Shown here piece by piece: positions 40,132 to 55,892 of a stretch of 64,000 bases of DNA (the first letter of the stretch is position 1; each line of letters begins with the position of its first letter). The notes under the pieces were generated by a model, which saw only the letters and a list, made by a program, of their open reading frames with translations, made no database searches and was not told the DNA's origin. This DNA comes from Minisyncoccota bacterium (GTDB lineage: Bacteria > Patescibacteriota > Minisyncoccia > Phycocordibacterales > Phycocordibacteraceae), in NCBI GenBank assembly GCA_018062765.1, contig JAGORR010000001.1, positions 78,638-142,637 of the forward strand, given 5' to 3'. A program made the translations under genes and the position numbers.

Positions 40132-40159
40132 AGCTAAAAGCTAGAAGCTGTAAGCTATT
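40132..40159. repeat. (AGCTANN)x4 tandem heptamer array: AGCTAAA AGCTAGA AGCTGTA AGCTATT.
   Basis: AGCT cores at 40132, 40139, 40146 and 40153. The last core overlaps the ppa stop codon. Confidence 0.7.
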
Positions 40160-40673
40160 TTGACGTGTCGTACATCTCGCGCGAGCGCAGGAATGCGGCT
40201 TCTGCGTCACTCTTGCCGCCGAACCCGTTTACCTCAACCACTTTGTTCTGAAGTTTCTTATAGGTGGAGTAGAAGTGCTCGATTTCCTTAAGCGTGTGCT
40301 TATTGATGTCGCCAAGGTCTTTCATTTCCGCAAAGCGCGGATCGCCCACAGGAACCGCAATGACCTTATCGTCTTTATCACCACTGTCGACCATATTGAG
40401 GAGCGCGATAGGTCGCGCACGTACCATGATGCCAGGGAGAAGGGGATGGGTCGTAAGTAGGATGACGTCGAGGGCGTCACCATCGTCCCAGAGGGTCTGC
40501 GGCACGAAGCCGTAGTCAAACGGGAAGTCCTGCGCCGTGTGCGCAACGCGATCGAGCGCGATGATGCCCGTCTCTTTGTCTATCTCATACTTATTCTTCG
40601 AGCCCTTGTTAATCTCGACGATGACGGTCATCTCGTCTTTGGTTCCCGGGTCAATGTCGTGAAGCAGGTTCAT
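40155..40673 (-). CDS. ppa: Inorganic pyrophosphatase (family I).
   Basis: HDIDPGTKDEMTVIVEINKGSKNKYEIDKETG. Start trimmed to MNLLHDID. The ORF-track extension translates the upstream repeat. Confidence 0.85.
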   Translation of the reverse strand: MNLLHDIDPGTKDEMTVIVEINKGSKNKYEIDKETGIIALDRVAHTAQDFPFDYGFVPQTLWDDGDALDVILLTTHPLLPGIMVRARPIALLNMVDSGDKDDKVIAVPVGDPRFAEMKDLGDINKHTLKEIEHFYSTYKKLQNKVVEVNGFGGKSDAEAAFLRSREMYDTSK

Positions 40674-40679
40674 ATAAGA

Positions 40680-40714
40680 GATAGCGTATAGCTGACAGCG
40701 TGCGGCGTACAGGG
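40680..40714. repeat. Five tandem heptamers: GATAGCG TATAGCT GACAGCG TGCGGCG TACAGGG. On the sense strand these read CCCTGTA CGCCGCA CGCTGTC AGCTATA CGCTATC.
   Basis: This fills almost the whole 43-nt nusA-ppa spacer. It is 33/36 identical to the 4859-4893 array. Confidence 0.75.
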
Positions 40715-40716
40715 GA

Positions 40717-42141
40717 TTACTCGTCGCGGCTTTCTGCGACGTCAGAGGCCGACTCGTTTCCTTCGTCTGCGACGGTGGTCTCCTCCTCAGCAGCAAGAGT
40801 GGTGTGCTCCTTAGGTGCCTCGAGTGACTCCTCTGCGTCCGCGCTTTCAGCGCCGATGTCGGTCGCGTCTACAGGAGTTGCGGTCTCAACCATCGCTTCC
40901 GTCATCTCCTCTTTTCCGGCGTCGGCTGCCTCGTCGATAGAAGGCGCAGGAGCCGCTTCGGGTGCTACATTGGCTGCCTCAGCGCCGGCATCTGCGACTT
41001 CCGTACCGCCCGACGAGATGATGTCGATGTTCCACCCAGTGAGCTTTGCGGCAAGGCGTACGTTCTGCCCGCCGCGACCGATGGCAAGGGACTGCTGATC
41101 GTCGGAAACCGATACCTTCGCGCGCTTCTCTTCCTCGTTAAGCTCGATTTCAAGGACGGATGCGGGAGAGAGTGCTTCTTTGATGAACGCGGACTGGTCC
41201 TCGCTCCACTCGATGATGTCGATGCGCTCGCCGCCGAGTGCCGCCATGACGGTTGAAACGCGCACGCCGCGCTGACCGACGAGGGATCCGACAGGGTCGA
41301 CATGAGGGTCGACAGATGCGACTGCAATCTTCGTGCGGCTTCCAGGCTCGCGTGCGATGCTCTTCACTTCGATGGCGCCCGAAGCGAGTTCTGGTACTTC
41401 CATTTCAAACAACTGCACCAAAAAGCGTGGGTGGCTGCGCGAGAGGCGGAGGAATACGCCGCGGAAGCCCTCATCTACCGCGTAAAGATACGCGCGGATG
41501 CGCTCCCCGGGACGATACCGCTCACCAGGAATCTGCTCCTCATACGGGATGATGCCGGTTGCACGGCCGAGGTCGACGAATATCGCGCCGCGCTCCATGC
41601 GCTGCACGATTCCGGAAATTATCTCGCCCTTCTTGTGGCCGAACTCCTCAAGTATGGACATCTTCTCCGCTTCGCGGATTTTCTGGATAACGACCTGCTT
41701 TGCAGTTTGTGCGGCGATGCGGCCGAAATCGTCCTGGGGCTCAAGAGGGAAGATAATCTCCTCGCCCAAGGTTGCGGTGCGGCGGATACGCTTCGCGTCA
41801 TCAAGAAGCATGTGCTTCTCGGCGTTGTAGCGGGGGAGCTCGCCCTCAGGGACGACCTCCTCGCGCTCACGACCAAAATGGTGCTCAGGCTCGGGAGTAA
41901 ACTCCTCGCCTTCCTCGGGGAAACGCACCATCGTCTCATCGACGACAGACTTCACCTGCTCGAAGGAGACGGTGCCGGTGTCCATATCAACCTTGGCACG
42001 CACGACCTGGTCGCGCTTTCCGTACTCTTTCTTATATGCGGTGGCCATCGCGGTTTCGATAGCCTCAATCATCGTTTCCTTCGTGATACCGCGGTCTTCG
42101 AACTCTCCGAGCACTGAGTGAATAGTTTTGAGATCCAACAT
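40717..42141 (-). CDS. nusA: Transcription termination/antitermination factor NusA with an acidic C-terminal tail.
   Basis: NusA N-terminal, S1 and two KH domains. No rimP upstream. Confidence 0.9.
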   Translation of the reverse strand: MLDLKTIHSVLGEFEDRGITKETMIEAIETAMATAYKKEYGKRDQVVRAKVDMDTGTVSFEQVKSVVDETMVRFPEEGEEFTPEPEHHFGREREEVVPEGELPRYNAEKHMLLDDAKRIRRTATLGEEIIFPLEPQDDFGRIAAQTAKQVVIQKIREAEKMSILEEFGHKKGEIISGIVQRMERGAIFVDLGRATGIIPYEEQIPGERYRPGERIRAYLYAVDEGFRGVFLRLSRSHPRFLVQLFEMEVPELASGAIEVKSIAREPGSRTKIAVASVDPHVDPVGSLVGQRGVRVSTVMAALGGERIDIIEWSEDQSAFIKEALSPASVLEIELNEEEKRAKVSVSDDQQSLAIGRGGQNVRLAAKLTGWNIDIISSGGTEVADAGAEAANVAPEAAPAPSIDEAADAGKEEMTEAMVETATPVDATDIGAESADAEESLEAPKEHTTLAAEEETTVADEGNESASDVAESRDE

Positions 42142-42285
42142 AGTCCTATATTTAGTTGTAGTCGCACATATTAAGTTTTCGCTTCTTCAGTATGTCCTAC
42201 CTGCGTGATTCCTAAAAAGAAAATCCGCCAAGCGGACATTCAGTACCCGTAACGTACCACGCTGAGCCTGTTGCGTCAATGAAGC

Positions 42286-42323
42286 TATATAAAGAAAGCG
42301 CCCCGGCATAGTGCCGAGGCGCG
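42286..42323 (-). terminator. Rho-independent terminator after the RTX-repeat gene.
   Basis: Stem GCGCCTCGGC / GCCGGGGCGC followed by TTTCTTTATATA on the minus strand. Confidence 0.5.
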
Positions 42324-42353
42324 AAGTTGGGTAAAGAACTCAGTCGTGAGGGG

Positions 42354-43331
42354 TTAGGCGAATGCCCAGTCACCATTGATCGTGGTCGCTTCTGCAGCGA
42401 ACACCAAAGGCGGGGGCGGAACCCACTCGACGCCAGGAGCCAGATAGATGTGGCCGACGTTCGCCCCGTTCTCGATCGTCAACGACTTGGACGAGATTAC
42501 GAGGTCGTGTCCGACCATCGTGATTTCGCTGTTGTCGAGGCCGAGCGAGGTCAGGACAAGCGAGTCGTGGACGTTCGCATCGGAGAGCACGGTAGTGCCG
42601 TTGCCGAACCGGGCGTCGAAGACGTCCGAGCCCGAGCCGCCGTGCATGGTGTCGTTGCCGCCACCGCGCAGGACGTCGCGTCCGTCGCCGCCAACGAGGA
42701 AGTCGCCCACCCCGTCTTCGACACCGTTCGACTGGAAACCACGGACGTCGTCGTTGCCGTCGCCGCCGTGGACCGTGTCGGCTCCGTTGCCGCCGAACAG
42801 TGTGTCGTTGCCGTCCTCGCCGTAGAGCGAGTCGTCACCGTTGTTGCCGTTCAGCGTGTCGCTGTCAGCACCGCCCCAGGCGCGATCGCGCGCCGACGAA
42901 CCGCTGACCCAGTCGTTGCCGGCGCCGCCGAAAAACTGGTCGAGGCCGGTACCGCCGAACATCTTGTCGTGGCCGTCGCCGCCGATGAACATGTTGTCCC
43001 CGGTCGAGCCGCGAGCGTAGAGGTAGTCGTCGCCTTGTACGCCGAGCAGCCAGTTGTCGCCGCTCCCGTTGACCCTGACCTCGTCGTTGCCTTCGCCGCC
43101 GACCAGCTGGTCGTTCCCGGAGGCAGAGATCAGCTGGTCGTTCCCGGAGTGGCCCTCTAGGTGGTCGTCGCCCTGGGTGCCGATGAGGGTGTCGTTGCCG
43201 GCACCTGCAAGGATGGCGAGGCCGTGATCCGTAAACGCGCGGAAGTCCATGCGATTCGGGTCGTGGTCGCCCCACCTGGTGGTGGCGTCAGTGGCGAAGT
43301 AGGTCGGCATCACGGGTTCTGCACGGTTCAT
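42354..43331 (-). CDS. RTX-type (hemolysin-type Ca-binding GGxGxD nonapeptide repeat) protein.
   Basis: More than 15 tandem GxxGxDxL/F-type nonapeptides (GGEGNDEV, GGDGHDKMFGG, GGAGNDWVSG...). No N-terminal signal peptide. Non-repeat C-terminal region of about 90 aa. Confidence 0.7.
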   Translation of the reverse strand: MNRAEPVMPTYFATDATTRWGDHDPNRMDFRAFTDHGLAILAGAGNDTLIGTQGDDHLEGHSGNDQLISASGNDQLVGGEGNDEVRVNGSGDNWLLGVQGDDYLYARGSTGDNMFIGGDGHDKMFGGTGLDQFFGGAGNDWVSGSSARDRAWGGADSDTLNGNNGDDSLYGEDGNDTLFGGNGADTVHGGDGNDDVRGFQSNGVEDGVGDFLVGGDGRDVLRGGGNDTMHGGSGSDVFDARFGNGTTVLSDANVHDSLVLTSLGLDNSEITMVGHDLVISSKSLTIENGANVGHIYLAPGVEWVPPPPLVFAAEATTINGDWAFA

Positions 43332-43379
43332 CTTAGTCTCCTGTTTAGGACATCTGCGAGAAGTCGCAGGTCTGGTATT

Positions 43380-43408
43380 ATAGTATCATACATAGTCACC
43401 TGTGTCAA
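43380..43408 (-). promoter_or_regulatory. Candidate sigma-70 promoter for the RTX gene (TTGACA-17-TACTAATAAT).
   Basis: Perfect -35 hexamer on the minus strand and an AT-rich -10 window, about 70 nt upstream of the ATG. Confidence 0.35.
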
Positions 43409-43477
43409 TAGGCATCGGCAGCACTTCATATCGCTCGCGCGTGACGCACAAACTCGAACTTTTTCTTTTCCCCGCGT

Positions 43478-45283
43478 TTGTTTTTATGTTCTCTGTTCTC
43501 TCTACTCGGTCAGCTATACTTATATATAGTCATGCAGGTCTCGGAGAGCGAACTTAAGGAATTCATCACGGATTCGGGACTGGTGTCCCGGAAGGATGTC
43601 GACGCTGCAGAAGTAACTGCCAAAGAGCGTAAGCAGTCGGTGGGCGACATCCTGGTGGGTTCAGGCGCGCTTACCTCGGATGCGCTCCGTCGCATCAAGG
43701 CATACGTGCTTGGTATACCGTTTGTGAACCTCAAGGATAAGAAGATAGACGTTGCCGTGCTCTCTCTTATCCCGGAGCCAATCGCACGTACGCACTCCAT
43801 CATTGCGTACCAGAAAAAAGGGACTGAACTTGAGGTCGCGATGCTCGATACGGAAGACCTGCCCGCAATAGACTCGGTCAGGAAGAAGACAGGCCTCAAG
43901 ATACAGGCGCGTCTTACTGATGACGAGTCCGTAAAGCATGCCTTGCTGCAGTACCAGAAGTCCTTGAAGGAGGAGTTTGGTGACTTGATTGCAACTGAAG
44001 CAGGGAAGCTCACGGTCGTTAAGGAATCGTCTGATAAAGAGGCGTCGGGAGAGGAGCTTAAGAAGTTGGCGGAGGATCTGCCTATCGTGCGCATCGTCGA
44101 CACCTTGTTGCGGCACGCCATCATCCAGAAAGCATCTGACATACATATAGAGCCAGGAGAACAGGAAGTCATGGTGCGCTACCGCATCGACGGCTCACTC
44201 CATGACGCGATGACGCTGCCGCGCCAGGCTGCGGCCGGCATTACTGCCCGCATCAAGGTTCTCGCTAACCTGAAGCTCGATGAGAAACGTCTGCCGCAGG
44301 ACGGACGTTTCAAGATGGAGACGGAGAGCGACAAGGTTTCGTTCCGTGTTTCTTTGCTCCCTACCTACTTCGGCGAGAAGGTCGTGATGCGACTTTTGCG
44401 CGAGAGCGGCGACGGATTCACGCTAGAAGGACTTGGCTTTCATGGCGACTCCCTGGAGCGCATTCATAAAGCAACGAAGCAAGCGAACGGACTCATTTTG
44501 ATTTCTGGACCTACGGGCTCAGGTAAAACGACAACGCTTTATACGGTGCTCGATATTCTGAATACGCCGGACGTGAACATCAGTACGATAGAAGACCCCA
44601 TCGAGTACCAGATGAAGCGCGTAAATCAGACACAGGTGAATCCGGCGATAGGATTCTCATTCGCAAACGGACTACGCGCACTCGTTCGACAGGACCCAGA
44701 TGTCATCATGGTCGGAGAAATTCGAGACGGCGAGACAGCCGCGCTTGCGGTGAATGCTGCGCTTACCGGACACTTAGTGCTTTCAACCATCCACACGAAC
44801 AGCGCCGCGGGAGCGATACCGAGGCTTGTCGACATGGGCGTCGAGCCATTTCTTCTCGTCTCGACGTTGAAGGTTATCGTCGGTCAGCGCCTCGTACGTC
44901 GCCTGTGCGACGACAAGGAGGAATACAAATCTACCCAGGCTGAGCGCGATAAGGTTGCGGGCGTCGATAAGTTTGATGCGGCTCTCAAGGCGCTTTTGGA
45001 CGAGAAGCTCGTTAAGCCAAAGACGGATATCGACGACGTTCCGTTTTATCACCCGAAGGCGGGCGGGGAGTGCGAGGAGGGGTACGCAGGCCGCATGGGC
45101 ATACACGAAGTCCTTTCTATGAGTTCTACGATAAAGGATCTCATCATAAAGGGTGCGACCTCCGACGCTATAGAGGCGCAAGCCAGGAAGGAAGGCATGC
45201 TCACCATGCTTGAGGACGGTATTTATAAGGCATCGCGCGGGATTACGAGCCTTGAGGAAGTGCTTGGCGCGGTGACGGAATAA
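43478..45283 (+). CDS. pilB: Type IV pilus / type II secretion assembly ATPase (PilB/GspE family).
   Basis: GspE N-terminal domain, Walker A GPTGSGKTTTL, Asp and His boxes and the C-terminal tetracysteine. Confidence 0.85.
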   Translation: MFLCSLFSLLGQLYLYIVMQVSESELKEFITDSGLVSRKDVDAAEVTAKERKQSVGDILVGSGALTSDALRRIKAYVLGIPFVNLKDKKIDVAVLSLIPEPIARTHSIIAYQKKGTELEVAMLDTEDLPAIDSVRKKTGLKIQARLTDDESVKHALLQYQKSLKEEFGDLIATEAGKLTVVKESSDKEASGEELKKLAEDLPIVRIVDTLLRHAIIQKASDIHIEPGEQEVMVRYRIDGSLHDAMTLPRQAAAGITARIKVLANLKLDEKRLPQDGRFKMETESDKVSFRVSLLPTYFGEKVVMRLLRESGDGFTLEGLGFHGDSLERIHKATKQANGLILISGPTGSGKTTTLYTVLDILNTPDVNISTIEDPIEYQMKRVNQTQVNPAIGFSFANGLRALVRQDPDVIMVGEIRDGETAALAVNAALTGHLVLSTIHTNSAAGAIPRLVDMGVEPFLLVSTLKVIVGQRLVRRLCDDKEEYKSTQAERDKVAGVDKFDAALKALLDEKLVKPKTDIDDVPFYHPKAGGECEEGYAGRMGIHEVLSMSSTIKDLIIKGATSDAIEAQARKEGMLTMLEDGIYKASRGITSLEEVLGAVTE

Positions 45284-45284
45284 T

Positions 45285-46502
45285 ATGAGATTCAAAGCGA
45301 CTTTTAAAAAGGAAGACGGGAGTGAAGAAACGCGCGTCGTCGAAGCCGAGAACCGGTTCTCGGTCTATCAGGAGGCCGAGAAGACAGGAGAGACCGTGAC
45401 TGCGATAGAGGAAGCAGGGCGCGGATGGAACTTCAAGGCACTTGCGAGCCTCACTATCGGCAAGGGAATCAAAGTCGAGGAGCATATTACCTTCGTCAAA
45501 AACCTTGCGGCCATGCTCTCAGCAGGGCTTAACCTCAACCGTGCGCTCTCTGTTATTGAGCGACAGACTTCCAATAAGGTGCTGAAGCGCATCGTCACCG
45601 AGCTCCAGACCGCAGTGAAGGGCGGTATGTCATTTCACGAAGCGCTTGCGCAGCATCCGAAGATATTCTCGAAGCTTGAAATCGCGATGTCGAAGGCAGG
45701 AGAGGAGTCTGGAACGCTCGCCGAGTCTCTGCGCGTGGTCGCAAAGCAGATGGACCGCGCGCACACCCTTATGAAGAAGGTGAAGGGTGCGATGATTTAC
45801 CCGGGCATCATCCTGTTTGCCATCATCGTTATCGGTATTCTTATGATGGTGTACGTGGTGCCTACTCTCGCGTCGACCTTCACGGAGCTCGGTGTTGAAC
45901 TCCCGACATCGACCAAGATTATCCTCGCGGTCTCGGATTTCATGGTTAACAACATCGTACTTGTCATTGCGTCGGTACTGCTTCTTATGGGTCTCATCGT
46001 TTACGCCCTACGCTCTCCCGCTGGAGCCGCGGTCGCGCTTCGCGGCTCGTTATATATCCCGGTCGTATCGACCATCGTAAAGGAGACATTCAGTGCGCGC
46101 GCGGCGCGCACCCTCTCCTCGCTCCTCTCTTCCGGAGTCGAGATGCTAACCGCCATCTCCATCACGCGTGAAGTCGTCGGAAATCGCATTTTCGGCAAGC
46201 CTATAGAAGAGGCAGAGGAGCTCGTCCGGAAAGGTGAGCCGCTCTCTGCTTCATTTGCTAAGTACCCAAAGCTCTATCCAGTCCTGTTCACCGATATGAT
46301 CGCGGTGGGGGAGGAGACGGGTAAGGTCGCCGATATGCTCGGACAGGTCGCGGAATACTACGAAACAGACGTTGAGGATAAGACGAAGGACCTCTCGACT
46401 GTCATAGAGCCGGTGTTGATGCTTATTATTGGCGCGGCAGTGGGCGTGTTTGCCTTTTCAATGATTGGACCGATATATTCCCTCACCTCCCAAATCGGTT
46501 AA
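45285..46502 (+). CDS. pilC: Type IV pilus platform protein (PilC/GspF family).
   Basis: Duplicated GspF domain with 3 TM. Start 2 nt after the pilB stop. Confidence 0.8.
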   Translation: MRFKATFKKEDGSEETRVVEAENRFSVYQEAEKTGETVTAIEEAGRGWNFKALASLTIGKGIKVEEHITFVKNLAAMLSAGLNLNRALSVIERQTSNKVLKRIVTELQTAVKGGMSFHEALAQHPKIFSKLEIAMSKAGEESGTLAESLRVVAKQMDRAHTLMKKVKGAMIYPGIILFAIIVIGILMMVYVVPTLASTFTELGVELPTSTKIILAVSDFMVNNIVLVIASVLLLMGLIVYALRSPAGAAVALRGSLYIPVVSTIVKETFSARAARTLSSLLSSGVEMLTAISITREVVGNRIFGKPIEEAEELVRKGEPLSASFAKYPKLYPVLFTDMIAVGEETGKVADMLGQVAEYYETDVEDKTKDLSTVIEPVLMLIIGAAVGVFAFSMIGPIYSLTSQIG

Positions 46503-46660
46503 TGGTGCGCTTAAAAAACGGGAACCTGCTTCGTTGCAGGCGCCCGTCGATGTTCTCCACCGTATAGTCCATACGTTTCCGAACATCGCCTGCCCGCGCC
46601 TCGCATCTTCCTCGTTTTTTAAACGCACCGGAAGGCGCAACAGGTATTCATGGTTAAGGG

Positions 46661-48391
46661 GTGCGTTATCATTTCATTATGCCGTTTGAAAATCGGGGGA
46701 TGACTTTAATCGACGTTCTCGTCGGTACTTCCGTCGCGGTCATCATTTTCCTCGGCATCTTCGTTATCCTTCAGGCATCCGCATCCATTACGGGCGCGTC
46801 TGCATCGAAGGCGACCGCATTGGCGCTCGCCAACGGGCGTATTGAGATGTTGCGCTCCTTACCATACGCATCCATAGGAACGGTGGGCGGCATTCCGTCA
46901 GGTGCCATCGCGCAGGAAGAGACCATTTATTCCGATCTGGTGCCGTACGAGGTCCGTACCTTCATCTCTTACTACGACGATGCGAAGGACGGCTCGGGCG
47001 CTGCAGACTCTAATGGCATCCAGGCGGACTACAAGCGGGCGAAGGTGACAGTTACCTACGAGACACAGAACGGGGAGCGGGAAGTAGCCGTCGTTTCGAC
47101 CTTTGCGCCGATTGGAATCGAGACGACTGCGGGTGGCGGCACGCTACGCGTCGTCGTTGTGGACGCTGACGGCGTAGCGGTTCCAGGAGCAGAAGTTGTT
47201 GTCGAAAATCCAAATACAACTCCCACAATCGACGTAACGACGTACACAGACTTCGCGGGGTACGCCTTATTCCCGGGTGCCGCGACCTCAACGGGGTACG
47301 AGGTGTCAGTCACAAAGGGCGGGTGGTCTACGGCGCGCACCTATAGTCAGGACGCAACCAACCAGAACCCGACACCGGGACATCTCACCATCGCTGGGGG
47401 GCAGACGACGACCGGCACGTTTGCGATAGATGAGCTTGCGGCCGTCCTCGTGCGTTCCTTTACACCGGTTGTGCCTGGCACATGGTCCGATGCATTTATA
47501 GATGCGTCGAATCTCGTGACGATGGTGGGTGTATCGGTAGGTGGAGGCGAGCTCACGCTCGCAACTGGCGCGGACGGGTATGAGGCGTCAGGTGCTGCCG
47601 TCGCGTCATCGGTAGCACCCACCTATCTTGTTGCGTGGCACGAAGCGTCATTTACTCCCGCAACTCCTGGCGGGACGACGCTTCTGGTGAAAGTTACCGA
47701 CGCTGCCGGTACCTTGGTGCCGGACGCCGCGCTCCCCGGGAACAGCAGTGGTTTCGCGGCATCACCAATAGACCTCTCCGCGCTCGCAACATCGACCTAT
47801 CCATCTCTTTCGCTACGTGCTGAGCTTTCAACCGCTGCCACTACGACAACGCCGACGCTTGCGGATTGGGGGCTGGCCTATAGTCGTGGTCCGATACCGT
47901 ATCCGTCTCTGGCGTTCTCGCTTACAGGCGCGAAAGCCATAGGTTCTACCGTAGGCGGCGCACCTATATATAAGACCGAACTCGATGAGACGACCGATTC
48001 TTCCGGAAGCATCGGCCTCGATCTTGAGTGGGACAGCTACACACTCTCGCTCTCAGGCCCCGTGATTATCGATACCTGTGCCGCGTTCCCACTTGAAGTG
48101 GCGCCTGGCGCGGGTATGACGGCGGACATTATCGTTGCGACTTCGACTGGGAATGCGCTCAAGGCGTATGCGAAATTTCTGTCGGGGAGCGCTGTGGCGA
48201 GTCCTACGTTCACTCTCTCGAGGAGCGGCTTTTCGCGCACGTTGCCTGGGAACGTGTGCGGATTTGCTTACTTTGGAGACCTCACGCCAGCTGCCGATTA
48301 CGCGCTTTCTGTGACTTCGACCTCTACGACCGAGTCGTTCACTGACATTTCTATTTCCGGTCTTTCAAGCTATGACGCGATTCTCGATTGA
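46661..48391 (+). CDS. Large type IV pilin-like protein (class III signal peptide) with a Thr/Ser/Gly-rich extracellular region.
   Basis: FENRG|MTLIDVLVGTSVAVIIFLGIFVIL prepilin-type N-terminus. 576 aa. The true start may be the ATG at 46679. Confidence 0.55.
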   Translation: MRYHFIMPFENRGMTLIDVLVGTSVAVIIFLGIFVILQASASITGASASKATALALANGRIEMLRSLPYASIGTVGGIPSGAIAQEETIYSDLVPYEVRTFISYYDDAKDGSGAADSNGIQADYKRAKVTVTYETQNGEREVAVVSTFAPIGIETTAGGGTLRVVVVDADGVAVPGAEVVVENPNTTPTIDVTTYTDFAGYALFPGAATSTGYEVSVTKGGWSTARTYSQDATNQNPTPGHLTIAGGQTTTGTFAIDELAAVLVRSFTPVVPGTWSDAFIDASNLVTMVGVSVGGGELTLATGADGYEASGAAVASSVAPTYLVAWHEASFTPATPGGTTLLVKVTDAAGTLVPDAALPGNSSGFAASPIDLSALATSTYPSLSLRAELSTAATTTTPTLADWGLAYSRGPIPYPSLAFSLTGAKAIGSTVGGAPIYKTELDETTDSSGSIGLDLEWDSYTLSLSGPVIIDTCAAFPLEVAPGAGMTADIIVATSTGNALKAYAKFLSGSAVASPTFTLSRSGFSRTLPGNVCGFAYFGDLTPAADYALSVTSTSTTESFTDISISGLSSYDAILD

Positions 48392-49058
48392 TATGGAAAG
48401 AGCAGCGAGCAGCGAAAAGTGTACAGCGACTAGGAATATGACCACCGCTTCTTCCGCGGCTATACGCTTTCGGGCCGGCTTTACGCTTATCGAGACGTTG
48501 ATGGTGATTGGTCTTACCGCCGTCGTGGGACTCGCGATTTCGAACATGATTTTGTTCACCTATCGCACGAACACCTACCTCTACCAGCAGAGCGCAGCGA
48601 CTGATAACGCGCGACGCGGCCTCGACCCGGCGCTGCAGAACCTACGCGAGGCGACCTACGCTGCTGATGGCTCGTATCCGCTGTCGACGGCAGCTACTTC
48701 GTCCGTAACTTTCTTCAGCGACGTCGATGTCGACGGATCGGTTGAGAAAATTCGTTACTATCTCTCAGGGACGACGTTCTATCGCACGATTACGAATCCG
48801 GCAGGTTCGCCCCCGTCATACGTGGGGCAGGCAGCCGCGACGTCGACTATCGCTTCCTACGTGAAGAATTTCTCCGCAAACGCGAGCGTGTTCCGCTATT
48901 ACGACAGCACCGGAACGGAGCTTGCAGCGCCCATTGATGTTGCTGAGGTGAGGAGTATCAGTATCTCGGTAATGGTCGACGTGGACCCAAACCGCACACC
49001 AACGACCTATTCGCTCACGGGCTCGGCGACATTCCGCAACCTGCGCGATACTGATTGA
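48372..49058 (+). CDS. Type IV prepilin (canonical G|FTLIE).
   Basis: RFRAG|FTLIETLMVIGLTAVVGLAIS. The heptamer array at 48401-48428 lies inside the annotated 5' end. The real start is probably the ATG at 48438. Confidence 0.6.
   Translation: MTRFSIDMERAASSEKCTATRNMTTASSAAIRFRAGFTLIETLMVIGLTAVVGLAISNMILFTYRTNTYLYQQSAATDNARRGLDPALQNLREATYAADGSYPLSTAATSSVTFFSDVDVDGSVEKIRYYLSGTTFYRTITNPAGSPPSYVGQAAATSTIASYVKNFSANASVFRYYDSTGTELAAPIDVAEVRSISISVMVDVDPNRTPTTYSLTGSATFRNLRDTD
48401..48428. repeat. Tandem heptamers AGCAGCG AGCAGCG AAAAGTG TACAGCG.
   Basis: Same TACAGCG-family unit as the 4859 and 40057 arrays. It ends 9 nt before the ATG at 48438. Confidence 0.6.
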
Positions 49059-49059
49059 T

Positions 49060-50589
49060 ATGGAAAGGAAAGCGTTTAGCGTAGAGCGTAGAGCATGTAG
49101 GAAAGACGGACCGGCTTCTTCTATACGCTATACGCTATCAGCTAGACACTCTCTGCAAGGCGGGTATCTCATGCTCCTGTCGCTCGTCTTTGGCGGGATA
49201 TTCCTAGGACTCCTCGGAGCGCTAACGAGCTACGTTCTTCTTGAGAATCGGCTTCAGGACCAGAAGGACGCGCAAGGTCGTGCATTTGCGATAGCTGAAG
49301 CAGGGCTCGAGTACTATCGATGGTTCTTGGCGCACTATCCGGGAAACGTCACGAATGGAGTTTCAGGCGGCCCCACAACGTTTACGCTTCCGTACTATGA
49401 CCCGGAGGGCGAGCAGCTCGGAAACTACACGCTGACGCTGAATCAGAATTCCGCCTGTGGCGCCGTCTCCTCCGTAGATATCGAATCGGAGGGCGCTACG
49501 CTCGATATGCCACAGGTGACACAGACGGTATCGGCGCGCTACGCGCAGCCTTCGGTTGGGCGTTATTCCTACGTATTGAATGACAGCGTATGGGCCGGCG
49601 CGGACCGCATCATCCTGGGGCCCTATCACTCCAATGGTGGTATCCGTATGGACGGGACCGCAAACTCATCTGTGTCGAGCTCGGTTTCGACTTGGAACTG
49701 CACGAGTAGCTACGGCTGTAGCCCAACGCAGTCGGCTGCGCCAGGCGTTGTTGGCACAGGCCCCAATCAGAGTCTTTGGACGTATCCGGTGCCGCAGGTG
49801 GACTTTGCGGCCATAGCTGCGGATTTTGCCTCGCTCAAATCGACCGCGCAGGCGCAGGGTCTCTACTATCCTCGCTACAGTAATACGAACAATCCGAATT
49901 CCTCTGCGTACTGGCACGGATACCACCTCACATTTAACGCAAACGACACCGTTACGGTTCGGCGCGTGACCTCAACAACGGAACTCGAGGTCGAGCCAGT
50001 GAATCCGGCGGAGACCCTCGATACAGACCGCGCGCTGATAGCGAACGAAACCATGTATGAAACGAGGACGATACCCGCTTCATGCGGACTCATCTACGTG
50101 GAGGATCACGTATGGATAGATGGCACCATCCCGTCTGAAGTGACGGTCGTTGCCGCTAATACAGCGTCGGGGCTCTCACCAAACGCATACCTGCGCAACA
50201 ACATCGTGTATGAAAATACAGACGGTAGTTCTGGCCTCACACTTATTGCGGAGAACAACGTGCTGATTGCACCTAACGCGCCTGCTGCAATGACCCTGAA
50301 CGGCATCTTCATCGCACAGAACGGTGCGTTTGGTCGGAACCTCTACTACAACAATTCCCGGACAGCATGCCACTCAACCTATGAACCGAAAACATCTCTC
50401 ACCATCCTTGGCACCACGGTCTCGAACAAGCGCACCGGAACCAAGTGGACCGGCGTTTCCTGCTCGGGCGGATACGCGGGCTTCGGTACCCGTATCGACT
50501 CCTACGACGAGCAGATGGCCATAGATCCACCACCCTTCACTCCTATCGTTTCGACCGATTACGAGATTATGGATTGGCGTGAACGGTAG
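49060..50589 (+). CDS. Pseudopilin/minor-pilin-like protein (N-terminal hydrophobic helix, no Glu5).
   Basis: SLQGGYLMLLSLVFGGIFLGLLGALTSYVLLE. 509 aa. Two heptamer arrays (49075-49102 and 49121-49148) lie in its annotated 5' region. The ATG at 49171 is an alternative start. Confidence 0.45.
   Translation: MERKAFSVERRACRKDGPASSIRYTLSARHSLQGGYLMLLSLVFGGIFLGLLGALTSYVLLENRLQDQKDAQGRAFAIAEAGLEYYRWFLAHYPGNVTNGVSGGPTTFTLPYYDPEGEQLGNYTLTLNQNSACGAVSSVDIESEGATLDMPQVTQTVSARYAQPSVGRYSYVLNDSVWAGADRIILGPYHSNGGIRMDGTANSSVSSSVSTWNCTSSYGCSPTQSAAPGVVGTGPNQSLWTYPVPQVDFAAIAADFASLKSTAQAQGLYYPRYSNTNNPNSSAYWHGYHLTFNANDTVTVRRVTSTTELEVEPVNPAETLDTDRALIANETMYETRTIPASCGLIYVEDHVWIDGTIPSEVTVVAANTASGLSPNAYLRNNIVYENTDGSSGLTLIAENNVLIAPNAPAAMTLNGIFIAQNGAFGRNLYYNNSRTACHSTYEPKTSLTILGTTVSNKRTGTKWTGVSCSGGYAGFGTRIDSYDEQMAIDPPPFTPIVSTDYEIMDWRER
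49075..49102. repeat. Tandem heptamers TTTAGCG TAGAGCG TAGAGCA TGTAGGA.
   Basis: Read directly. TANAGCG-type units. Confidence 0.6.
49121..49148. repeat. Tandem heptamers CTATACG CTATACG CTATCAG CTAGACA. Inverted relative to the 49075-49102 array.
   Basis: Same units as the sense strand of the 40680-40714 array. Confidence 0.65.
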
Positions 50590-50630
50590 TCACACGGTAC
50601 CCTGCTGCCAGAAGAATCGAGGAGGCTTCG

Positions 50631-51098
50631 ATGAAGAGGGCAACACTGGTGTTCGTTGTTAAAGACGGGCACGTACTGCTTGGTATGAAGAAGTCCGGTG
50701 AAATCGGTACCGGAACCTGGAACGGTCCCGGAGGAAAGATTGAACCCGGAGAGACGGCGATCGCCTGCTTGTTGCGTGAGGTCGAGGAGGAGCTCGACAT
50801 TCGGCTGATTCCGGACGCGCTTGAGGAAATCGCCACTATCCTTTTCCGTAACAACGAGTCCGATGACTTCTATGTCCACGTGTATCGGACGGCCCGGTTT
50901 GAGGGAACGCCTCGCGAGACCCGGTACATGCTCCCTCGCGCCTTTCCGATTGATGAACTACCGTACGAGCACATGCTCCCAGGAGATTCTCTCTGGATTC
51001 CACGCGTTCTATCGGGCTCACGCTTTTCCGCTCTTGTTGAGCGGCGCAGCGCAGACCTCTCGATTGAATTTCTGCCCTTCGGGGCGATTCTTGCCTGA
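50631..51098 (+). CDS. NUDIX hydrolase.
   Basis: Nudix box GGKIEPGETAIACLLREVEEELDI. A GAGGAGG Shine-Dalgarno lies upstream. Confidence 0.7.
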   Translation: MKRATLVFVVKDGHVLLGMKKSGEIGTGTWNGPGGKIEPGETAIACLLREVEEELDIRLIPDALEEIATILFRNNESDDFYVHVYRTARFEGTPRETRYMLPRAFPIDELPYEHMLPGDSLWIPRVLSGSRFSALVERRSADLSIEFLPFGAILA

Positions 51099-51148
51099 CC
51101 GAGGCCTCTTAAAACGAGGCCTCTTTCACTGTCTGCTACAATTGGCCC

Positions 51149-51892
51149 ATGCTCATCGTTGCTAACTGGAAGGCGTACGTAGAGGAGGGGAAGCGAGCAA
51201 AGGCATTGTTCGCTCTTGCGAAGCGTCTTTCGGGAAAGTACAAGCACGAGATAGTGCTCGCGCCTTCCTTTCCACAGCTCGGACTCCTTGCTCCAGGGAA
51301 CCGCACCAAAGTCCGCTTCGCGTCTCAGGACGTGTCGGTTGTTACCGGTGGTGCGCAGACTGGCGAGACGACCGCGCAGGTCGTGAAAGATACCGGCGCC
51401 ACATACGCCATCATTGGGCACTCCGAACGCCGTGGCTCGGGCGAGGACGACGCAATAGTGGCGCTCAAGGTGCAGCACGCTCTCGCGCAAGGGCTTATAC
51501 CTATTCTTTGTGTCGGAGAACGCGAGCGCGATCAGAGTGCTGAGTATCTTGGCTTCGTTCGCGCGCAACTCGCGGCGGTGATGGCGCCCTTGTCGCAGAA
51601 GGAGCGTATGCAGGTTGTCGTCGCGTATGAGCCCATTTGGGCCATAGGGAAGTCTGCGGCCGAGGCCATACTGCCCGCAGATCTTGCGGAGATGTCCTTA
51701 TATATACGCAAAGTGCTCGGCGACTATCTCCCCGGGAAGGCCCCCGCAAAGACTCGGGTCATTTACGGTGGATCGGTTGAGCCCGGCAACATCCGCGACC
51801 TCGCGGCCGCTGGTGGCATCGACGGATTCCTTATCGGCCACGCTTCGGTCGAAGTGCCGTCCTTCGCATCGCTCGTCGCAGCCATTTCCTAA
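51149..51892 (+). CDS. tpiA: Triosephosphate isomerase.
   Basis: MLIVANWK..., IIGHSERR and AYEPIWAIG motifs. Confidence 0.9.
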   Translation: MLIVANWKAYVEEGKRAKALFALAKRLSGKYKHEIVLAPSFPQLGLLAPGNRTKVRFASQDVSVVTGGAQTGETTAQVVKDTGATYAIIGHSERRGSGEDDAIVALKVQHALAQGLIPILCVGERERDQSAEYLGFVRAQLAAVMAPLSQKERMQVVVAYEPIWAIGKSAAEAILPADLAEMSLYIRKVLGDYLPGKAPAKTRVIYGGSVEPGNIRDLAAAGGIDGFLIGHASVEVPSFASLVAAIS

Positions 51893-51893
51893 T

Positions 51894-52172
51894 ATGAAGG
51901 GTCTCGAGAGCGCGGGTTCAGGAGGGGGGCGTACAGGCACTGACGAGGCATTTCTCCAGCGCAATGCCCTGCAGATAGCGCTAGCAAAAAAAGCTTTTCC
52001 GGGCGTAGAGGGCGGCGACGCAATGATGGAATGGGCTACGGGTCCGCTTTCAAGTCGCTTTGCTCGCTATGAAAAGATGCACCCAGAACTTGATCTGCGT
52101 GACAGTAGTAGCCAGGCTCTCGACGCGATTATTACGGAACTTCGTGCGATGACGGACGATACCGTCCACTAA
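51894..52172 (+). CDS. Hypothetical 92-aa protein between tpiA and pgk.
   Basis: ATG 2 nt after the tpiA stop. The ORF-track start at 51684 is an overlapping upstream extension. Confidence 0.3.
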   Translation: MKGLESAGSGGGRTGTDEAFLQRNALQIALAKKAFPGVEGGDAMMEWATGPLSSRFARYEKMHPELDLRDSSSQALDAIITELRAMTDDTVH

Positions 52173-52177
52173 GTGGT

Positions 52178-53311
52178 ATGCGGAGCGTCCGCGATATACC
52201 GGTCCTCGAGAACATTCCTGTTCTTGTTCGTGCAGCACTGAACGCTGAGGTGGAAAAGGGAAAGGTAACCGAAGACTATCGGCTCCGCGCGGCGCTCCCG
52301 ACGATTGAGTATCTCGCAAAGCGTCATGCGCGCGTGGTTTTGCTGGGGCACATATCAGGGAAGGGAACAGAATCGCTCCGTCCCATGCAGGAAGCGATGA
52401 AGAAATGGATTCCGAGTATCGCGTTCTGTCCGACAACTTCCGGAGAAGAGGCAAGAGCGGCAATACGCGCGCTTTCCCCAGGGGGCGTCCTTATGCTTGA
52501 GAACCTGCGACGCGATGTTCGAGAAGAGAAGAATGACCCTGCTTTCGCGCGTGAGCTCGCAGAGCTTGGCGACATATTCATTGAGGATGCGTTTGATGTC
52601 TGTCACCGCGCGCACGCGTCTGTCGTTGGTATACCGAAGTTCCTACCGTCCTACGCAGGACTACTCGTAGAGAAGGAAGTCAACGCGCTTACTAAGGCGC
52701 TTGCGCCGGCAACGCCCTCGCTCGCCATAATCGGTGGTGCGAAGTTCTCGACTAAGGAGCCGGTCTTAGCAAAGCTCATAAACACATACGATCAGGTGTT
52801 TATAGGAGGGGCGCTCGCGAATGATTTTATACAAGCATCTGGAAAGCCTGTAGGAACTTCGCTCGTATCTGGGGCGGATCAGGATAAGTTAAAAATGCTG
52901 CTCGCAACCGGAAAGATTCTTTTGCCAATCGATTACGTCGTCGCCCCTAAAGGGAAGACTCGAAACGAAGGGCGTGTGTGCGAGCCGGACGAGGTGCTCC
53001 CGGAGGAAGCGATTCTCGATAACGGACCAGCCTCCATAGCGCTCCTCAATGAACGGATACAAAACGCGAAGACCGTTCTTTGGAACGGTCCCTTGGGGAA
53101 TTATGAGAACGGATTCGTTGAGGGCACGGAGGCACTTGCGGTTATCGTCGCGCGCGCAAAAGCGTATTCAATACTCGGTGGAGGAGACACGGTGGCTGCG
53201 ATAGAGAAAACCGGCGTTGAGAAACACATTGATTTCGTCTCGACTGGCGGCGGCGCGATGCTCGAGTTTCTCGCAAGCGGAACACTCCCTGGCCTTAAGG
53301 CGCTTTCCTAG
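52178..53311 (+). CDS. pgk: Phosphoglycerate kinase.
   Basis: N-terminal RxDxNVP-type motif (VLVRAALNAEV), hinge and C-terminal GGGAMLEFL motifs. Confidence 0.9.
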   Translation: MRSVRDIPVLENIPVLVRAALNAEVEKGKVTEDYRLRAALPTIEYLAKRHARVVLLGHISGKGTESLRPMQEAMKKWIPSIAFCPTTSGEEARAAIRALSPGGVLMLENLRRDVREEKNDPAFARELAELGDIFIEDAFDVCHRAHASVVGIPKFLPSYAGLLVEKEVNALTKALAPATPSLAIIGGAKFSTKEPVLAKLINTYDQVFIGGALANDFIQASGKPVGTSLVSGADQDKLKMLLATGKILLPIDYVVAPKGKTRNEGRVCEPDEVLPEEAILDNGPASIALLNERIQNAKTVLWNGPLGNYENGFVEGTEALAVIVARAKAYSILGGGDTVAAIEKTGVEKHIDFVSTGGGAMLEFLASGTLPGLKALS

Positions 53312-53712
53312 CCGAGAGCGAGCTTCACACGGACCTTCTCGAGTTCCTCTGCGTCCGGGCTCCCGCGCTTTCCCGTAAGGATGAGGTTCGAGGTGAGGTC
53401 GAGGGAGTCTTCCATCGGTACCACATGCACATGGGCGTGCGGTACATCCCATCCAGCGACCTGAAATCCGACCCGTTTTGGGGAAAGGGTTCGCTCAATC
53501 ATGCCCGCTACCCTTTTGGATGCGCGCGTAACAGCGTCAAAGGTCCCATCGTCGAGGTGGTGCAGGTCCGGGTCGTGAACTTTGGGTATCACAAGGGTGT
53601 GGCCAGGCCGGAGCGGATGGATATCAAGGAATGCGACCACCTGATTATCCTCGTACACCACGGAGGCAGGCAGTTCGCCAGCTGCGATCTTGCAGAATAT
53701 GCAGTCTTTCAT
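53308..53712 (-). CDS. HIT-family hydrolase.
   Basis: MKDCIFCKIA..., HTLVIPKVH and the histidine triad HAHVHVVP. Start trimmed from the ORF-track 53853. Confidence 0.7.
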   Translation of the reverse strand: MKDCIFCKIAAGELPASVVYEDNQVVAFLDIHPLRPGHTLVIPKVHDPDLHHLDDGTFDAVTRASKRVAGMIERTLSPKRVGFQVAGWDVPHAHVHVVPMEDSLDLTSNLILTGKRGSPDAEELEKVRVKLALG

Positions 53713-53755
53713 GCGGCAAGCATACTCCCGAAGGCGATTTTGATACAATCCACGA

Positions 53756-55465
53756 ATGTCGCCCTTGCACGCTCCTATCGATGACGCCATTCGCGAGGAG
53801 CTCAAGGAATTTGATGACCTCACTGCAGCGCTTCTTGCGCGTCGCGGCGTCACGACGCGCGCGGAGGCCGAGACGTTTCTTAATCCTTCGTATGAAGACC
53901 ATATTCACGACCCGCTCCTCCTCAAGAATATGCACGCCGCAGCAAAGCGCGTTGCGCGTGCGATACATGCAGGCGAGCGCATCACGATATGGAGCGATTA
54001 TGACTGCGACGGCATACCTGGCGCCGTCATCCTCCATGATTTTCTGAAGAAGGCAGGAGCTAATTTCGATAATTACATTCCGCATAGGCACTTGGAGGGG
54101 TATGGCGTGAACTCGGAGGGAATCGAGAAGCTCGCCAAAGCAGGGACCTCGCTCGTCATCACGGTCGACTCAGGTATCACTGATAACGAGGCAGTGGCGC
54201 ATGCGCGGGAACTTGGCATGGACGTTATCGTGACTGATCACCATCTGCCGCAGCCACCTATGCCGGACGCCATCATCCTCGACCATAAACAGGAAGGAGA
54301 GACATATCCCTTTAAAGAGCTTTGCGGCGCTGTGATGGCGTGGAAGCTTGTGTGCGGGGTCTTAGCAGTAGATGCCCCGTTGCGCGAGAAGATACCCGTT
54401 GGATGGGAAAAGTGGCTTCTTGATATGGCCGCCTTGGCGACCATCGCCGACATGATGCCGCTTACAGGAGAGAATCGCGTCATTGTGCGTTACGGACTTC
54501 TCGTCCTTCGGAAATCCCCACGCGTGGGACTCCAGAAGCTCTGTAAGGCGATGCGTGTGAACCAGTCGCGCATCACCGAGGACGATGTCGCGTTCATGCT
54601 CGCCCCTCGCGTGAACGCCGCAAGTCGCATGGGAGACCCGCGGTACGCGTTTACGCTTTTCACAACGAGTGACGAAGCCGAGGCCGAGACGCTCGCAAAG
54701 AAACTCGAGAGCCTTAACCGGAGTCGGAGAGCAAGCGCAGGCGCCATCACAAAAGCGGTTCACGCGAAACTCGAGGAGCTCAAGGCATCGGGTACCATCC
54801 CCTCGGTCATCGTGCTCGGAGACCCAGAGTGGCGACCGGCACTGCTCGGGCTCGTTGCAAGCGGTATCGCAAGCGAGTACGAGCGCCCCGTATTCCTCTG
54901 GGGACGAGAAGGGAACGACACCCTTAAGGGCTCGTGCCGTAGCTGGGGAAACGTGCATCTGGTCGAACTCATGAAGGCAGCTAAGGACGCATTCGCGGAA
55001 TTTGGCGGTCACGCATACTCGGCGGGGTTTAGTGTCGCGGGTGACCAGATATTTAAGCTGTCGGAGAGACTTGTTGCTGCGCGAGAAATGCTTGCTGAAT
55101 CTTCGGAAGAGGATGCTGTACGGGCGGACGCGCCGCTCGCGCTTTCTGCCGCGACGTTCAGATTGTTGTCGACTCTTGAGAAGCTTGCGCCGTACGGGCA
55201 ATCGAATCCGAAGCCCGTATTCGGTTTCGAGAATGCCACAGTAGATGCGGTCGCATGGTTTGGGAAAACCGGAGAGCATCTGCGACTCTCCATCAGCGAC
55301 GGGTTCGTAGAGCTCGAAGCGATATCCTTCTTCGCGAGGCGCGAGCTTGGAAAGAAGGCAGACAGGCTTGAAAAGGGTAGTACGGTGACAGTCCTCGGTA
55401 ATCTTGAGCGCGACCAATTCTCTCGGAGCCGCGTACCGCGAGTACGTATCGTCTCCTTGGTATAG
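53756..55465 (+). CDS. recJ: Single-stranded-DNA-specific exonuclease RecJ.
   Basis: DHH motifs (SDYDCDGI, VTDHH) and a DHHA1 domain. Confidence 0.85.
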   Translation: MSPLHAPIDDAIREELKEFDDLTAALLARRGVTTRAEAETFLNPSYEDHIHDPLLLKNMHAAAKRVARAIHAGERITIWSDYDCDGIPGAVILHDFLKKAGANFDNYIPHRHLEGYGVNSEGIEKLAKAGTSLVITVDSGITDNEAVAHARELGMDVIVTDHHLPQPPMPDAIILDHKQEGETYPFKELCGAVMAWKLVCGVLAVDAPLREKIPVGWEKWLLDMAALATIADMMPLTGENRVIVRYGLLVLRKSPRVGLQKLCKAMRVNQSRITEDDVAFMLAPRVNAASRMGDPRYAFTLFTTSDEAEAETLAKKLESLNRSRRASAGAITKAVHAKLEELKASGTIPSVIVLGDPEWRPALLGLVASGIASEYERPVFLWGREGNDTLKGSCRSWGNVHLVELMKAAKDAFAEFGGHAYSAGFSVAGDQIFKLSERLVAAREMLAESSEEDAVRADAPLALSAATFRLLSTLEKLAPYGQSNPKPVFGFENATVDAVAWFGKTGEHLRLSISDGFVELEAISFFARRELGKKADRLEKGSTVTVLGNLERDQFSRSRVPRVRIVSLV

Positions 55466-55473
55466 TCAATTCT

Positions 55474-55890
55474 ATGCGTTTTTACATACAGGCGGATGGC
55501 GGAGCCCGCGGGAACCCCGGGCCCGCAGGGTCAGGTGCTGTCGTCCGTGACGCCGAGGGCAACACCATTCTAGAAGTCTCCGAGTTTATCGGGCACGCAA
55601 CCAACAATGTTGCTGAGTACACCGCGATTATCCGGGCTCTGGAAGGACTCAAGGAGCGGCTTGGCGCTGATGCATCGCAGGCGACGGTGACCATTGAGAT
55701 GGACAGCAAGCTCGTCGTCGAGCAGATGGAGGGTCGTTGGAAGGTGAAGCATCCAAACATGCGCCCTTTAGCCGCAAGGGCTGCCGTGCTCGCCTTATCG
55801 TTCGGACACGTTTCTTATGCGCACATTCCGCGCGAGAAGAATGGCGCGGCTGACGCCCTGGCGAACGCGGCGATGGATAGAGGACAGTAG
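55474..55890 (+). CDS. rnhA: RNase HI-like ribonuclease.
   Basis: YIQADGGARGNPGPAG, EYTAIIRALE and IEMDSKLVV motifs with the RNase H catalytic residues. Confidence 0.7.
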   Translation: MRFYIQADGGARGNPGPAGSGAVVRDAEGNTILEVSEFIGHATNNVAEYTAIIRALEGLKERLGADASQATVTIEMDSKLVVEQMEGRWKVKHPNMRPLAARAAVLALSFGHVSYAHIPREKNGAADALANAAMDRGQ

Positions 55891-55892
55891 CT

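Follow-up and report, generated by a model that had tools for sequence, protein, structure and literature searches.

Type IVb pilins carry class III signal peptides, whose basic leaders of about 15–30 residues are cleaved after a glycine, and the cyanobacterial STRR heptamers are comparable to intergenic heptamer direct repeats. Small dispersed palindromic repeats, such as Rickettsia palindromic elements (RPEs) and the MITE-like ERIC and BOX repeats, occur not only between genes but also inside open reading frames (ORFs), where they are in frame, free of stop codons and translated as an extra peptide (PMC10969869). Sets of the TAACTGA heptamer, found in Beggiatoaceae, Cyanobacteria and Bacteroidetes, comprise 2–6 tandem units and are overwhelmingly intergenic; they typically lie a few nucleotides before start codons that lack a Shine–Dalgarno (SD) sequence, including those of ribosomal-protein operons, and occasionally at the start or end of an ORF, and their function is unknown (PMC4679880). 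Almost all of them are direct, with one inverted case reported (PMC4679880). Here we describe a dispersed palindromic repeat with 7-nt units that is inserted at the 5′ ends of two minor pilin genes, pilin-2 and pilin-3, in a 64-kb stretch (the window) of a Patescibacteria (Paceibacteria/Parcubacteria) genome. The two sites are the pilin-1/pilin-2 junction (J12) and the pilin-2/pilin-3 junction (J23).

Like the RPE, ERIC and BOX repeats, the pilin inserts are small, palindromic, dispersed, in frame and stop-free, a likeness to RPEs that we judge from their description and not from sequence comparison. RPEs belong to a different phylum and lie in surface loops of enzymes, whereas the present elements have arms of tandem 7-nt units, differ in sequence from genome to genome and lie in a cleavable leader segment; unlike RPEs (PMC10969869), they encode no conserved peptide. 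With the REP/BIME, REPIN and MITE repeats they share a position at gene ends, a genome-specific sequence, presence/absence polymorphism and possible effects on mRNA stability and, in the case of J23, a short hairpin that folds better than shuffles. However, heptamer periodicity is not a REP feature, terminal inverted repeats and target-site duplications are not definable for the window copies, and neither a RAYT nor a parent insertion sequence (IS) was found in the window; an origin as a MITE of the window's IS1595 copy (27563–28450) was rejected because its ends are unrelated to the elements. Like the TAACTGA sets, the window arrays are tandem, have a 7-nt period and are mostly outside conserved coding sequence and near SD-less starts, but their units read AGCGTAn, CTATACG or TAGCTAn, they mostly form inverted hairpin pairs and their host belongs to the Patescibacteria. 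Finally, the predicted long basic leader ahead of a glycine cleavage site recalls the type IVb pilins, except that it is no family trait here (leaders of relatives have 3–15 residues, those of pilin-2 relatives 3–12) and appears to stem from a recent repeat insertion without sequence conservation. The present elements combine features of in-frame palindromes and of heptamer repeats and differ from both by their inverted arrays, variable units and cleavable-leader location; the literature that we searched held no description of such elements in Patescibacteria.

The reading that we favour, and in which we place moderate confidence, is that a dispersed hairpin repeat is tolerated in frame inside the codons of pilin leader peptides and is not a phase-variation switch. 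A palindromic element of about 75–100 nt, whose arms consist of 7-nt units (AGCGTAn and the complement) in short inverted arrays, would have lodged just past the start codons of pilin-2 and pilin-3 in this lineage, in the DNA for the N-terminal leader of a class III (prepilin) signal peptide. Ribosomes would terminate at TGA, re-initiate at the ATG one base on and read through the element to produce a basic, unconstrained leader of 35 residues in pilin-3 and of 29 (or 14) in pilin-2, which prepilin peptidase would be expected to cut off at G/F and G/Y (a slash marks the cleavage site throughout). Because such a leader would be discarded, an insertion would be tolerated provided that it keeps the reading frame and introduces no stop codon. 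Most likely, the hairpin would form in the RNA of the operon and adjust coupling, processing or stability; alternatively, it may be a structure needed for the element's own propagation.

Empty sites and the repeat family

Relatives, gathered by exact-protein look-up and genome scan, contain empty orthologous sites. The distance from the upstream stop codon to the mature N terminus has a median of 16 nt at J12 and 30 nt at J23 in about 80 genomes; the corresponding window values are 88 and 106 nt. Both junctions are compact in L005, whose pilin-2 is 75% identical and whose leaders read MRA/FTLVE and MRATPRALSRG/YLMLL, and likewise in L007, where the pilin-3 leader is MLRTSFSRARLRERG ahead of the mature tyrosine. 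An 88% relative, L004, combines a compact J12 with a 111-nt insert at J23, and a 92% relative, L009, has an insert at each of the two junctions. The J12 insert of L009 (89–160 of that locus) is an unrelated, MITE-like sequence with perfect terminal inverted repeats of 12–13 bp (CCCGTTAGAGGC) and a 6-bp duplication, GTTCAC; it adds 60 nt in frame and recreates a second G/FT cleavage motif (MKGFTPLE...LTG/FTLIE).

The preliminary description of this DNA, made from the sequence alone, had reported heptamer arrays at both junctions. At J23 this is borne out: the left array, AGCGTTT AGCGTAG AGCGTAG AGC, occupies 49071–49094 (AGCGTAG ×2.4 at 49078–49094 by Tandem Repeats Finder) and the right array, CTATACG CTATACG CTATCAG CTA, occupies 49121–49144 (CTATACG ×2.6 at 49121–49138), both on the plus strand. 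At J12, TACAGCG and CTATACG occur once each, and the sole true array is a GAGCAGC doublet (×2.3, Tandem Repeats Finder; 48400–48415, plus strand). The left and right units are mutually reverse-complementary and so form the arms of a hairpin, a feature that was missing from the earlier account, as was the dispersal of the element.

A third copy, on the minus strand at 4853–4944, can be aligned with the inserts of J12 and J23 along about 95 nt, from TGATATG onwards and including both arms. The third copy (nhmmer E=1.4e-18) translates as a 29-codon mini-ORF, MKRLAASVQTEHSCTAFAVRCTLSPVRYF, flanked by TGA-T-ATG and TAG-T-ATG; according to Pfam matches of its neighbours, it sits in a PrgI-containing (type IV secretion-like) operon, with a hypothetical gene on one side and a gene for a VirB4/TraG-like ATPase on the other. 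The mini-ORF has the appearance of a bridge that would keep translation coupled across the insert. A profile built from the three copies finds two further ones with nhmmer, both on the minus strand. The first (40683–40713, E=0.0085) is a related single array between nusA and ppa (40673–40716) that is missing in L005, where the gap between these genes is 12 nt compared with 44 nt in the window. The second (40068–40159, E=0.022) lies in a related element (40053–40165) in which inverted arrays of TACAGCG and AGCTnnn enclose a GC hairpin; this element ends 4 nt before a start codon and folds with z=-4.03 relative to shuffles. The repeat family thus has at least five related copies within 64 kb, including three of full length. 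More arrays lie upstream of pilB, upstream of an NYN-domain gene (20512–20553) and between rpsL and rpsG (60741–60766).

Of the 11 period-7 arrays, 10 are outside conserved coding sequence, in 11.6% of the window (p=4e-9), and five annotated starts without an SD are preceded by arrays ending 4–20 nt ahead of them. Per kilobase, period-7 arrays are about five times more frequent in the window than in 945 kb of relatives; several relatives bear inverted heptamer arrays of their own, with different units. A lag-7 autocorrelation scan was too strict to be useful. The possibility of a motif resembling DNA uptake sequences was discarded, as the unit hexamers are not over-represented across the window (27 copies of AGCGTA, 20 of TACGCT) and are mostly scattered singletons in coding sequence.

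Start codons and predicted leader translation

Both pilin junctions contain the 15-mer GATTGATATGGAAAG in exact form (48386–48400 and 49053–49067, plus strand), so the previously noted series of a stop codon, a T, an ATG and MER... stands. In the first copy, GAT is the last pilin-1 codon and is followed by the TGA stop (48389–48391), T, ATG (48393–48395) and GAAAG; the second runs in the same way through GAT, TGA (49056–49058), T, ATG (49060–49062) and GAAAG. The base ahead of the 15-mer had been given as c at both junctions, but the second copy has t (actGATTGA). The window holds exactly these two copies and none other at up to two mismatches, and two matches occurred in 0 of 100 shuffles. 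The exact form is strain-specific: in L090, a strain of 94.4% identity, the second junction has GATTGATATGGATAAG instead. TGA-T-ATG is the only part of the junction conserved among the closest relatives, and more distant ones keep an in-frame, stop-proximal ATG with other stop codons and spacers of 1–5 nt. Gene conversion between J12 and J23 as the source of the identical 15-mer was considered and is not demonstrable, given that just two of four window-specific changes match J12. A search of JGI metagenomes for more strains, with a degenerate 25-mer over the J23 junction, gave no matches.

A second in-frame ATG is present downstream of each junction, at 48438 and 49171, as the preliminary description had stated. 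One alternative is that the elements are untranslated intercistronic or 5′-untranslated modules, with 48438 and 49171 as the true starts and the arrays acting as initiation or stability elements upstream of starts in an SD-poor genome. The gene callers' choice of these two codons speaks for it, as do the other window arrays that end 4–20 nt before annotated SD-less starts, the location of ATG 48438 in the apical loop of J12, adjoining AGGA, and the parallel to TAACTGA repeats just upstream of start codons (PMC4679880). For pilin-3, however, the codons upstream of 49171 tell against it, and we consider this alternative unlikely. ATG 49171 lies within the hydrophobic segment, not directly before it: it encodes residue +3 of the conserved RG/YLMLLxLVFG, downstream of the cleavage glycine, and a start there would remove the conserved cleavage motif. 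Among 79 loci, Gly(-1) is kept in 77 with all four glycine codons in use, Arg(-2) in 60 (codons CGC, CGA and CGT) and Tyr(+1) in 50 (25 TAC and 25 TAT; Ser and Phe also occur). Met(+3), encoded by ATG, is found in 56 loci and absent from 23, and an SD-like motif precedes it in 17 of the 56. These residues are conserved as amino acids while their synonymous codons vary freely, and judged by these counts the pattern is one of amino-acid conservation and not of ribosome-binding-site conservation. A Shine–Dalgarno role for the R-G codons before Met 49171 was rejected on the same two grounds, the synonymous variation and the low frequency (17/56) of SD-like motifs.

Since R-G-Y is conserved with synonymous codon variation upstream of 49171, the pilin-3 start must, on this comparative evidence, lie upstream of 49165. 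ATG 49060 is the sole in-frame ATG, GTG or TTG upstream of R-G-Y and hence the only canonical option; the predicted leader, MERKAFSVERRACRKDGPASSIRYTLSARHSLQGG, has 35 codons (49060–49164, plus strand, containing the J23 element), with Y(+1) at 49165. About one third of the database entries for pilin-3 homologues (P0121–P0240) are called at an internal methionine (MLLALVFG...) and lose the leader together with RG/Y, which is a systematic error of start-codon annotation in this family.

The wider family argues in the same direction. An in-frame ATG within -25 to +12 nt of the upstream stop is a feature of 129 of the 134 short junctions, so stop-proximal initiation is the predicted family rule. 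Long junctions, defined as 55 nt or more (n=28), have a stop-proximal in-frame ATG in the same interval in 19 cases, including every case with a strong hairpin. Over the whole gap, the pilin frame is free of stops in 25 of the 28, whereas the two remaining frames are so in only 10 and 5 (Fisher p=4e-8); this weighs against the untranslated alternative. From the stop-proximal ATG, the frame is open at both junctions of the window and in L090, L004 and L009; the 49060 frame in particular is open in all four orthologues at about 55% divergence. The unit AGCGTAG contains a TAG, which is avoided in frame 0: at J23, exactly those units in which it would be in frame have TTT/TGT (window) or TAT/TGT (L090) in its place, and in the 4853–4944 mini-ORF the corresponding unit reads CAG. 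Five of the six substitutions between the window and L090 in J23 are non-synonymous, consistent with a leader peptide without sequence constraint, as would be expected if it is discarded. The leaders have net charges of +3 and +5; charge is weak as evidence of translation, because frame 0 has a mean of +4.3 but the other frames are positive too.

For pilin-2, translation through the element is only probable. The longest leader-coding segment with the J12 element (48393–48479, plus strand) has 29 codons and reads MERAASSEKCTATRNMTTASSAAIRFRAG before mature FTLIE, with Gly(-1) at 48477–48479 and the mature phenylalanine at 48480. ATG 48438 lies 14 codons ahead of the G/FTLIE site, and a cleavable leader is possible from either start (29 residues from 48393, 14 from 48438). 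The idea that the arrays are translated as part of unusually long leaders, one of two options in the preliminary description, is accordingly the favoured one, strongly so for pilin-3, where the conserved R-G-Y codons also remove support from its counterpart, downstream starts with untranslated arrays. The proposed check of cleavage-site spacing yields predicted leaders of 35 residues for pilin-3 and of 29 or 14 for pilin-2. The presence of an SD is uninformative as a guide to start choice, as most genes here lack one; in the start regions of the window (for example at 40052, 40673, 43532, 45285 and 51894), an SD is not recognisable at most genes. Stop-N-ATG junctions (TAA-T-ATG, TGA-T-ATG) join many window genes, and coupling by re-initiation thus seems frequent in this genome.

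Length conservation and phase variation

The arrays had also been proposed as phase-variation elements. As simple-sequence contingency loci they would toggle the minor pilins, a change of ±7 nt shifting the frame (7 mod 3 = 1), as known repeats do in the signal-peptide codons or promoters of surface-protein genes. The units do lie in the presumably translated 5′ segment of surface-structure genes, and heptanucleotide repeats are reported as phase-variation substrates (PMC12721329, PMC4692102). Yet the arrays have just 2–3 imperfect units, and the alignment of the window with L090 contains no gap in 19,582 nt (39477–59058) at 5.6% divergence. Array length is equal in three assemblies, and the J23 insert measures 111 nt in the window, 111 nt in L004 and 108 nt in L009, in frame throughout. 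The comparison of array length between strains that had been suggested therefore reveals no length variation, and we regard a contingency locus as very improbable.

Contig JAGOQO010000009 (GCA_017991435.1) and two independent Logan assemblies match the window with 100% identity, and the junction sequence is identical in three independent assemblies. The exact pilin-3 protein is also present on an NCBI contig labelled Candidatus Pacebacteria. Divergence from L090 across 39477–59058 forms a mosaic of 0–1% blocks beside 10–20% blocks. One of the switches, a rise from about 1% to about 9%, coincides exactly with the J23 junction (first mismatch at 49065) and points to a recombination breakpoint at this site.

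Hairpin structure and its evolution

The J23 arrays fold into a main hairpin of 22 pairs in three helices (49074–49147, plus strand), with a minimum free energy of -34.8 kcal/mol and z=-2.15. A small downstream stem of six pairs (helix 4; 49148–49165, plus strand) covers the ...LQGG/Y codons and shows one-sided changes only. The orthologous J23 inserts all fold better than shuffles (z from -2.2 to -3.2; L004 -3.15, L009 -2.74), although the identity of the window insert to those of L004 and L009 is 43–48%, as at the fourfold-degenerate sites of the flanking genes (42–47%). In the common structure of the four orthologues, 90% of cells are paired compared with 30–42% in slid controls, and 13 of the 28 predicted pairs, the downstream six-pair stem included, are compensatory; the observed values were reached in 0 of 500 shuffles. 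The units are altered jointly in both arms and read AGCGTAG/CTAtACG in the window, AGGTTAC/CTGTAAC in L004 and CCGG-based CCGGnnA in L009. This compensatory evolution is evidence for maintenance of the J23 hairpin in spite of drift in its sequence. Its upkeep may be due to selection on RNA, to a need of the element itself or to slippage with template switching between the arms. The excess of G-U over A-C (18 to 3) was set aside as a weak sign of a sense-strand RNA, as it is biased by RNA-based structure prediction.

At J12, the hairpin is weak (48413–48472, plus strand; minimum free energy -23 kcal/mol): its left arm is AAAAGTGTACAGC and its right arm GCTATACGCTTT, with ATG 48438 in the loop, and the change T48420C in L090 improves pairing. 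The fold of the 4853–4944 copy is no better than shuffles (z=+0.30).

These observations bear on a further rival, in which the heptamer hairpins serve specifically as cis-regulatory sites in RNA or DNA: a factor peculiar to the lineage, such as a ring-shaped or a cold-shock/S1-type RNA-binding protein, would read the 7-nt period and control coupling at many operon junctions, and the location in pilin leaders would be functional. The retention of the hairpin by compensatory change at neutral sequence divergence is in keeping with this idea, and so are the joint change of all units in both arms between the window, L004 and L009, the genome-specific units of more distant relatives, and the concentration of inserts at four of five junctions of the pilus operon (from the pilB 5′ end to pilin-3) compared with about 5 of about 55 elsewhere. 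It is nevertheless improbable in our estimation. Close relatives have the same operon without inserts, so these are dispensable; the units vary between genomes and even inside the window (AGCGTAn compared with TAGCTAn); there is no identified candidate for the reader factor; and joint change could also arise by slippage with template switching, or by conversion among dispersed copies. Nor does the region match Rfam 15, in which only tRNAs exceed the gathering threshold in the window and nothing meaningful appears at E≤10 in 48200–49400; on the basis of these scans, we rejected a riboswitch or other described RNA family in front of the pilin genes. A bolder form of the idea would make inverted heptamer-array hairpins functional, Paceibacteria-wide intercistronic RNA modules that set translational coupling or mRNA processing of SD-poor operons with a co-evolving factor of 7-nt period and are built into leader codons for pilin stoichiometry, which we think quite improbable.

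Distant Paceibacteria have strong palindromes (to -71 kcal/mol) in pilin leader-coding or junction regions, at 5885–6003 in L021, 5870–6003 in L029, 6589–6680 in L066, 4104–4208 and 6577–6671 in L082, 4045–4177 in L083 and 9478–9581 in L080. Several of them are made up of heptamers specific to the genome: AGCTTGG in L021, AATTTCT in L080, AGGGAAC and AATGAAA in L082, and CCTGTCG in L083. The AGCTTGG unit of L021 recurs 5 kb off in reverse orientation.

The pilus operon and neighbouring features

The pilin genes are preceded directly, on the same plus strand, by genes for a T2SSE and a T2SSF protein, and relatives show an identical gene order. The operon head is a gene for a pilB-like assembly ATPase (43532–45283; Pfam PF00437, E=8e-127), with its start placed as in GCA_017991435.1; TAA-T-ATG joins it to a gene for a pilC-like platform protein (45285–46502; PF00482, E=1e-56). 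Prepilin-type N termini are found in the products of all three pilin genes. Pilin-1, a large minor pilin (46679–48391), was delineated by ORF translation, gene call and alignment of the N-terminus family, and its leader MPFENRG is followed by MTLIDVLV. Pilin-2, a PilV/GspH-like minor pilin, spans 48393–49058 in its longest plausible form and has 159 homologues, several of them annotated as prepilin-type or matching PF07963, a domain present in many homologues. Its N terminus, RAG/FTLIETLMVIGLTAVVGLAI, fits the G/(F/M)xxxE motif and hydrophobic stretch of a class III signal peptide; the N_methyl motif (residues 27–49) scores slightly below the cutoffs of PF07963 (E=8e-4; 19.3 bits, cutoff 21.2) and TIGR02532 (15.8 bits, cutoff 16.3). 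Pilin-3, a PilX-like large minor pilin, spans 49060–50589 in its full form and has more than 1400 homologues; it is recognised by its N-terminal motif, the conserved RG/YLMLLxLVFG without Glu5, and matches no Pfam model.

The spacer between pilC and pilin-1 (46503–46678) measures 176 nt, compared with 28 nt in L005, and contains a 17-nt inverted repeat (46504–46520 and 46613–46629, 94% complementary) that encloses a second hairpin. This is a further palindromic insertion of another type, without heptamers. A conserved nucleotide motif at 46661–46678, GTGCGTTATCAT in the window, translates as VRYH and lies 6–12 nt 5′ of the pilin-1 start; it is also present in many Paceibacteria loci (for example L018, L023, L032 and L071) and could be a promoter element resembling a -10 box or an initiation signal. 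Divergent from pilB, a gene for an RTX/HemolysinCabind repeat protein (42354–43331, minus strand) contains tandem DNA repeats of 27/54 nt at 42750–42985. Farther away, the region 25481–30556 groups four tRNA genes, an IS1595-family transposase gene (27563–28450, minus strand) and a UPF0102/NERD nuclease gene; together with NYN-domain genes at 20002–20511 and 26760–27371, it may form a small mobile or variable segment.

Discussion

A number of observations weigh against the leader-peptide reading that we favour. Two gene callers picked the starts 48438 and 49171; ATG 48438 follows the left units by about 10 nt, the usual start position relative to the arrays of this genome; and leaders of 29–35 residues are long for pilins. 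In 9 of the 28 long junctions of relatives, there is no in-frame ATG within 12 nt of the upstream stop; these genes appear to start farther downstream, with the gap partly or wholly untranslated. The J12 hairpin is no more stable than shuffles (z=+0.48), and the covariation at J23 is based on four sequences from three lineages; independent re-insertion at one hotspot is a less likely alternative. No window ORF has the GxGDxK motif of a prepilin peptidase, and the 64-kb window shows no target-site duplication or transposase for its copies, for which reason the mobility of the element is deduced from its dispersal and the empty sites only. The comparisons establish the repeat family, the empty sites, the preserved frame, the translated nature of the R-G-Y codons and the compensatory change of the hairpin; re-initiation, leader cleavage and any regulatory effect are inferred.

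The start codons of these minor pilins are probably 48393 for pilin-2 and 49060 for pilin-3, as judged from the comparisons above. Gene callers truncate such genes, and about a third of pilin-3 homologues lose the cleavage motif in this way. The J23 hairpin, kept by compensation at neutral divergence while its units change jointly, ties to the old puzzle posed by the heptamer repeats that lie between genes in other phyla. If the hairpins were factor-read modules, the joint change of units would reflect co-evolution with the factor and not slippage or conversion. For the organism, the leader-peptide reading means that a discarded class III leader can be a safe harbour for palindromic repeats in the tightly coupled operons of a reduced Patescibacteria genome, and the mini-ORF at 4853–4944 would represent a second way of keeping coupling over an insert.

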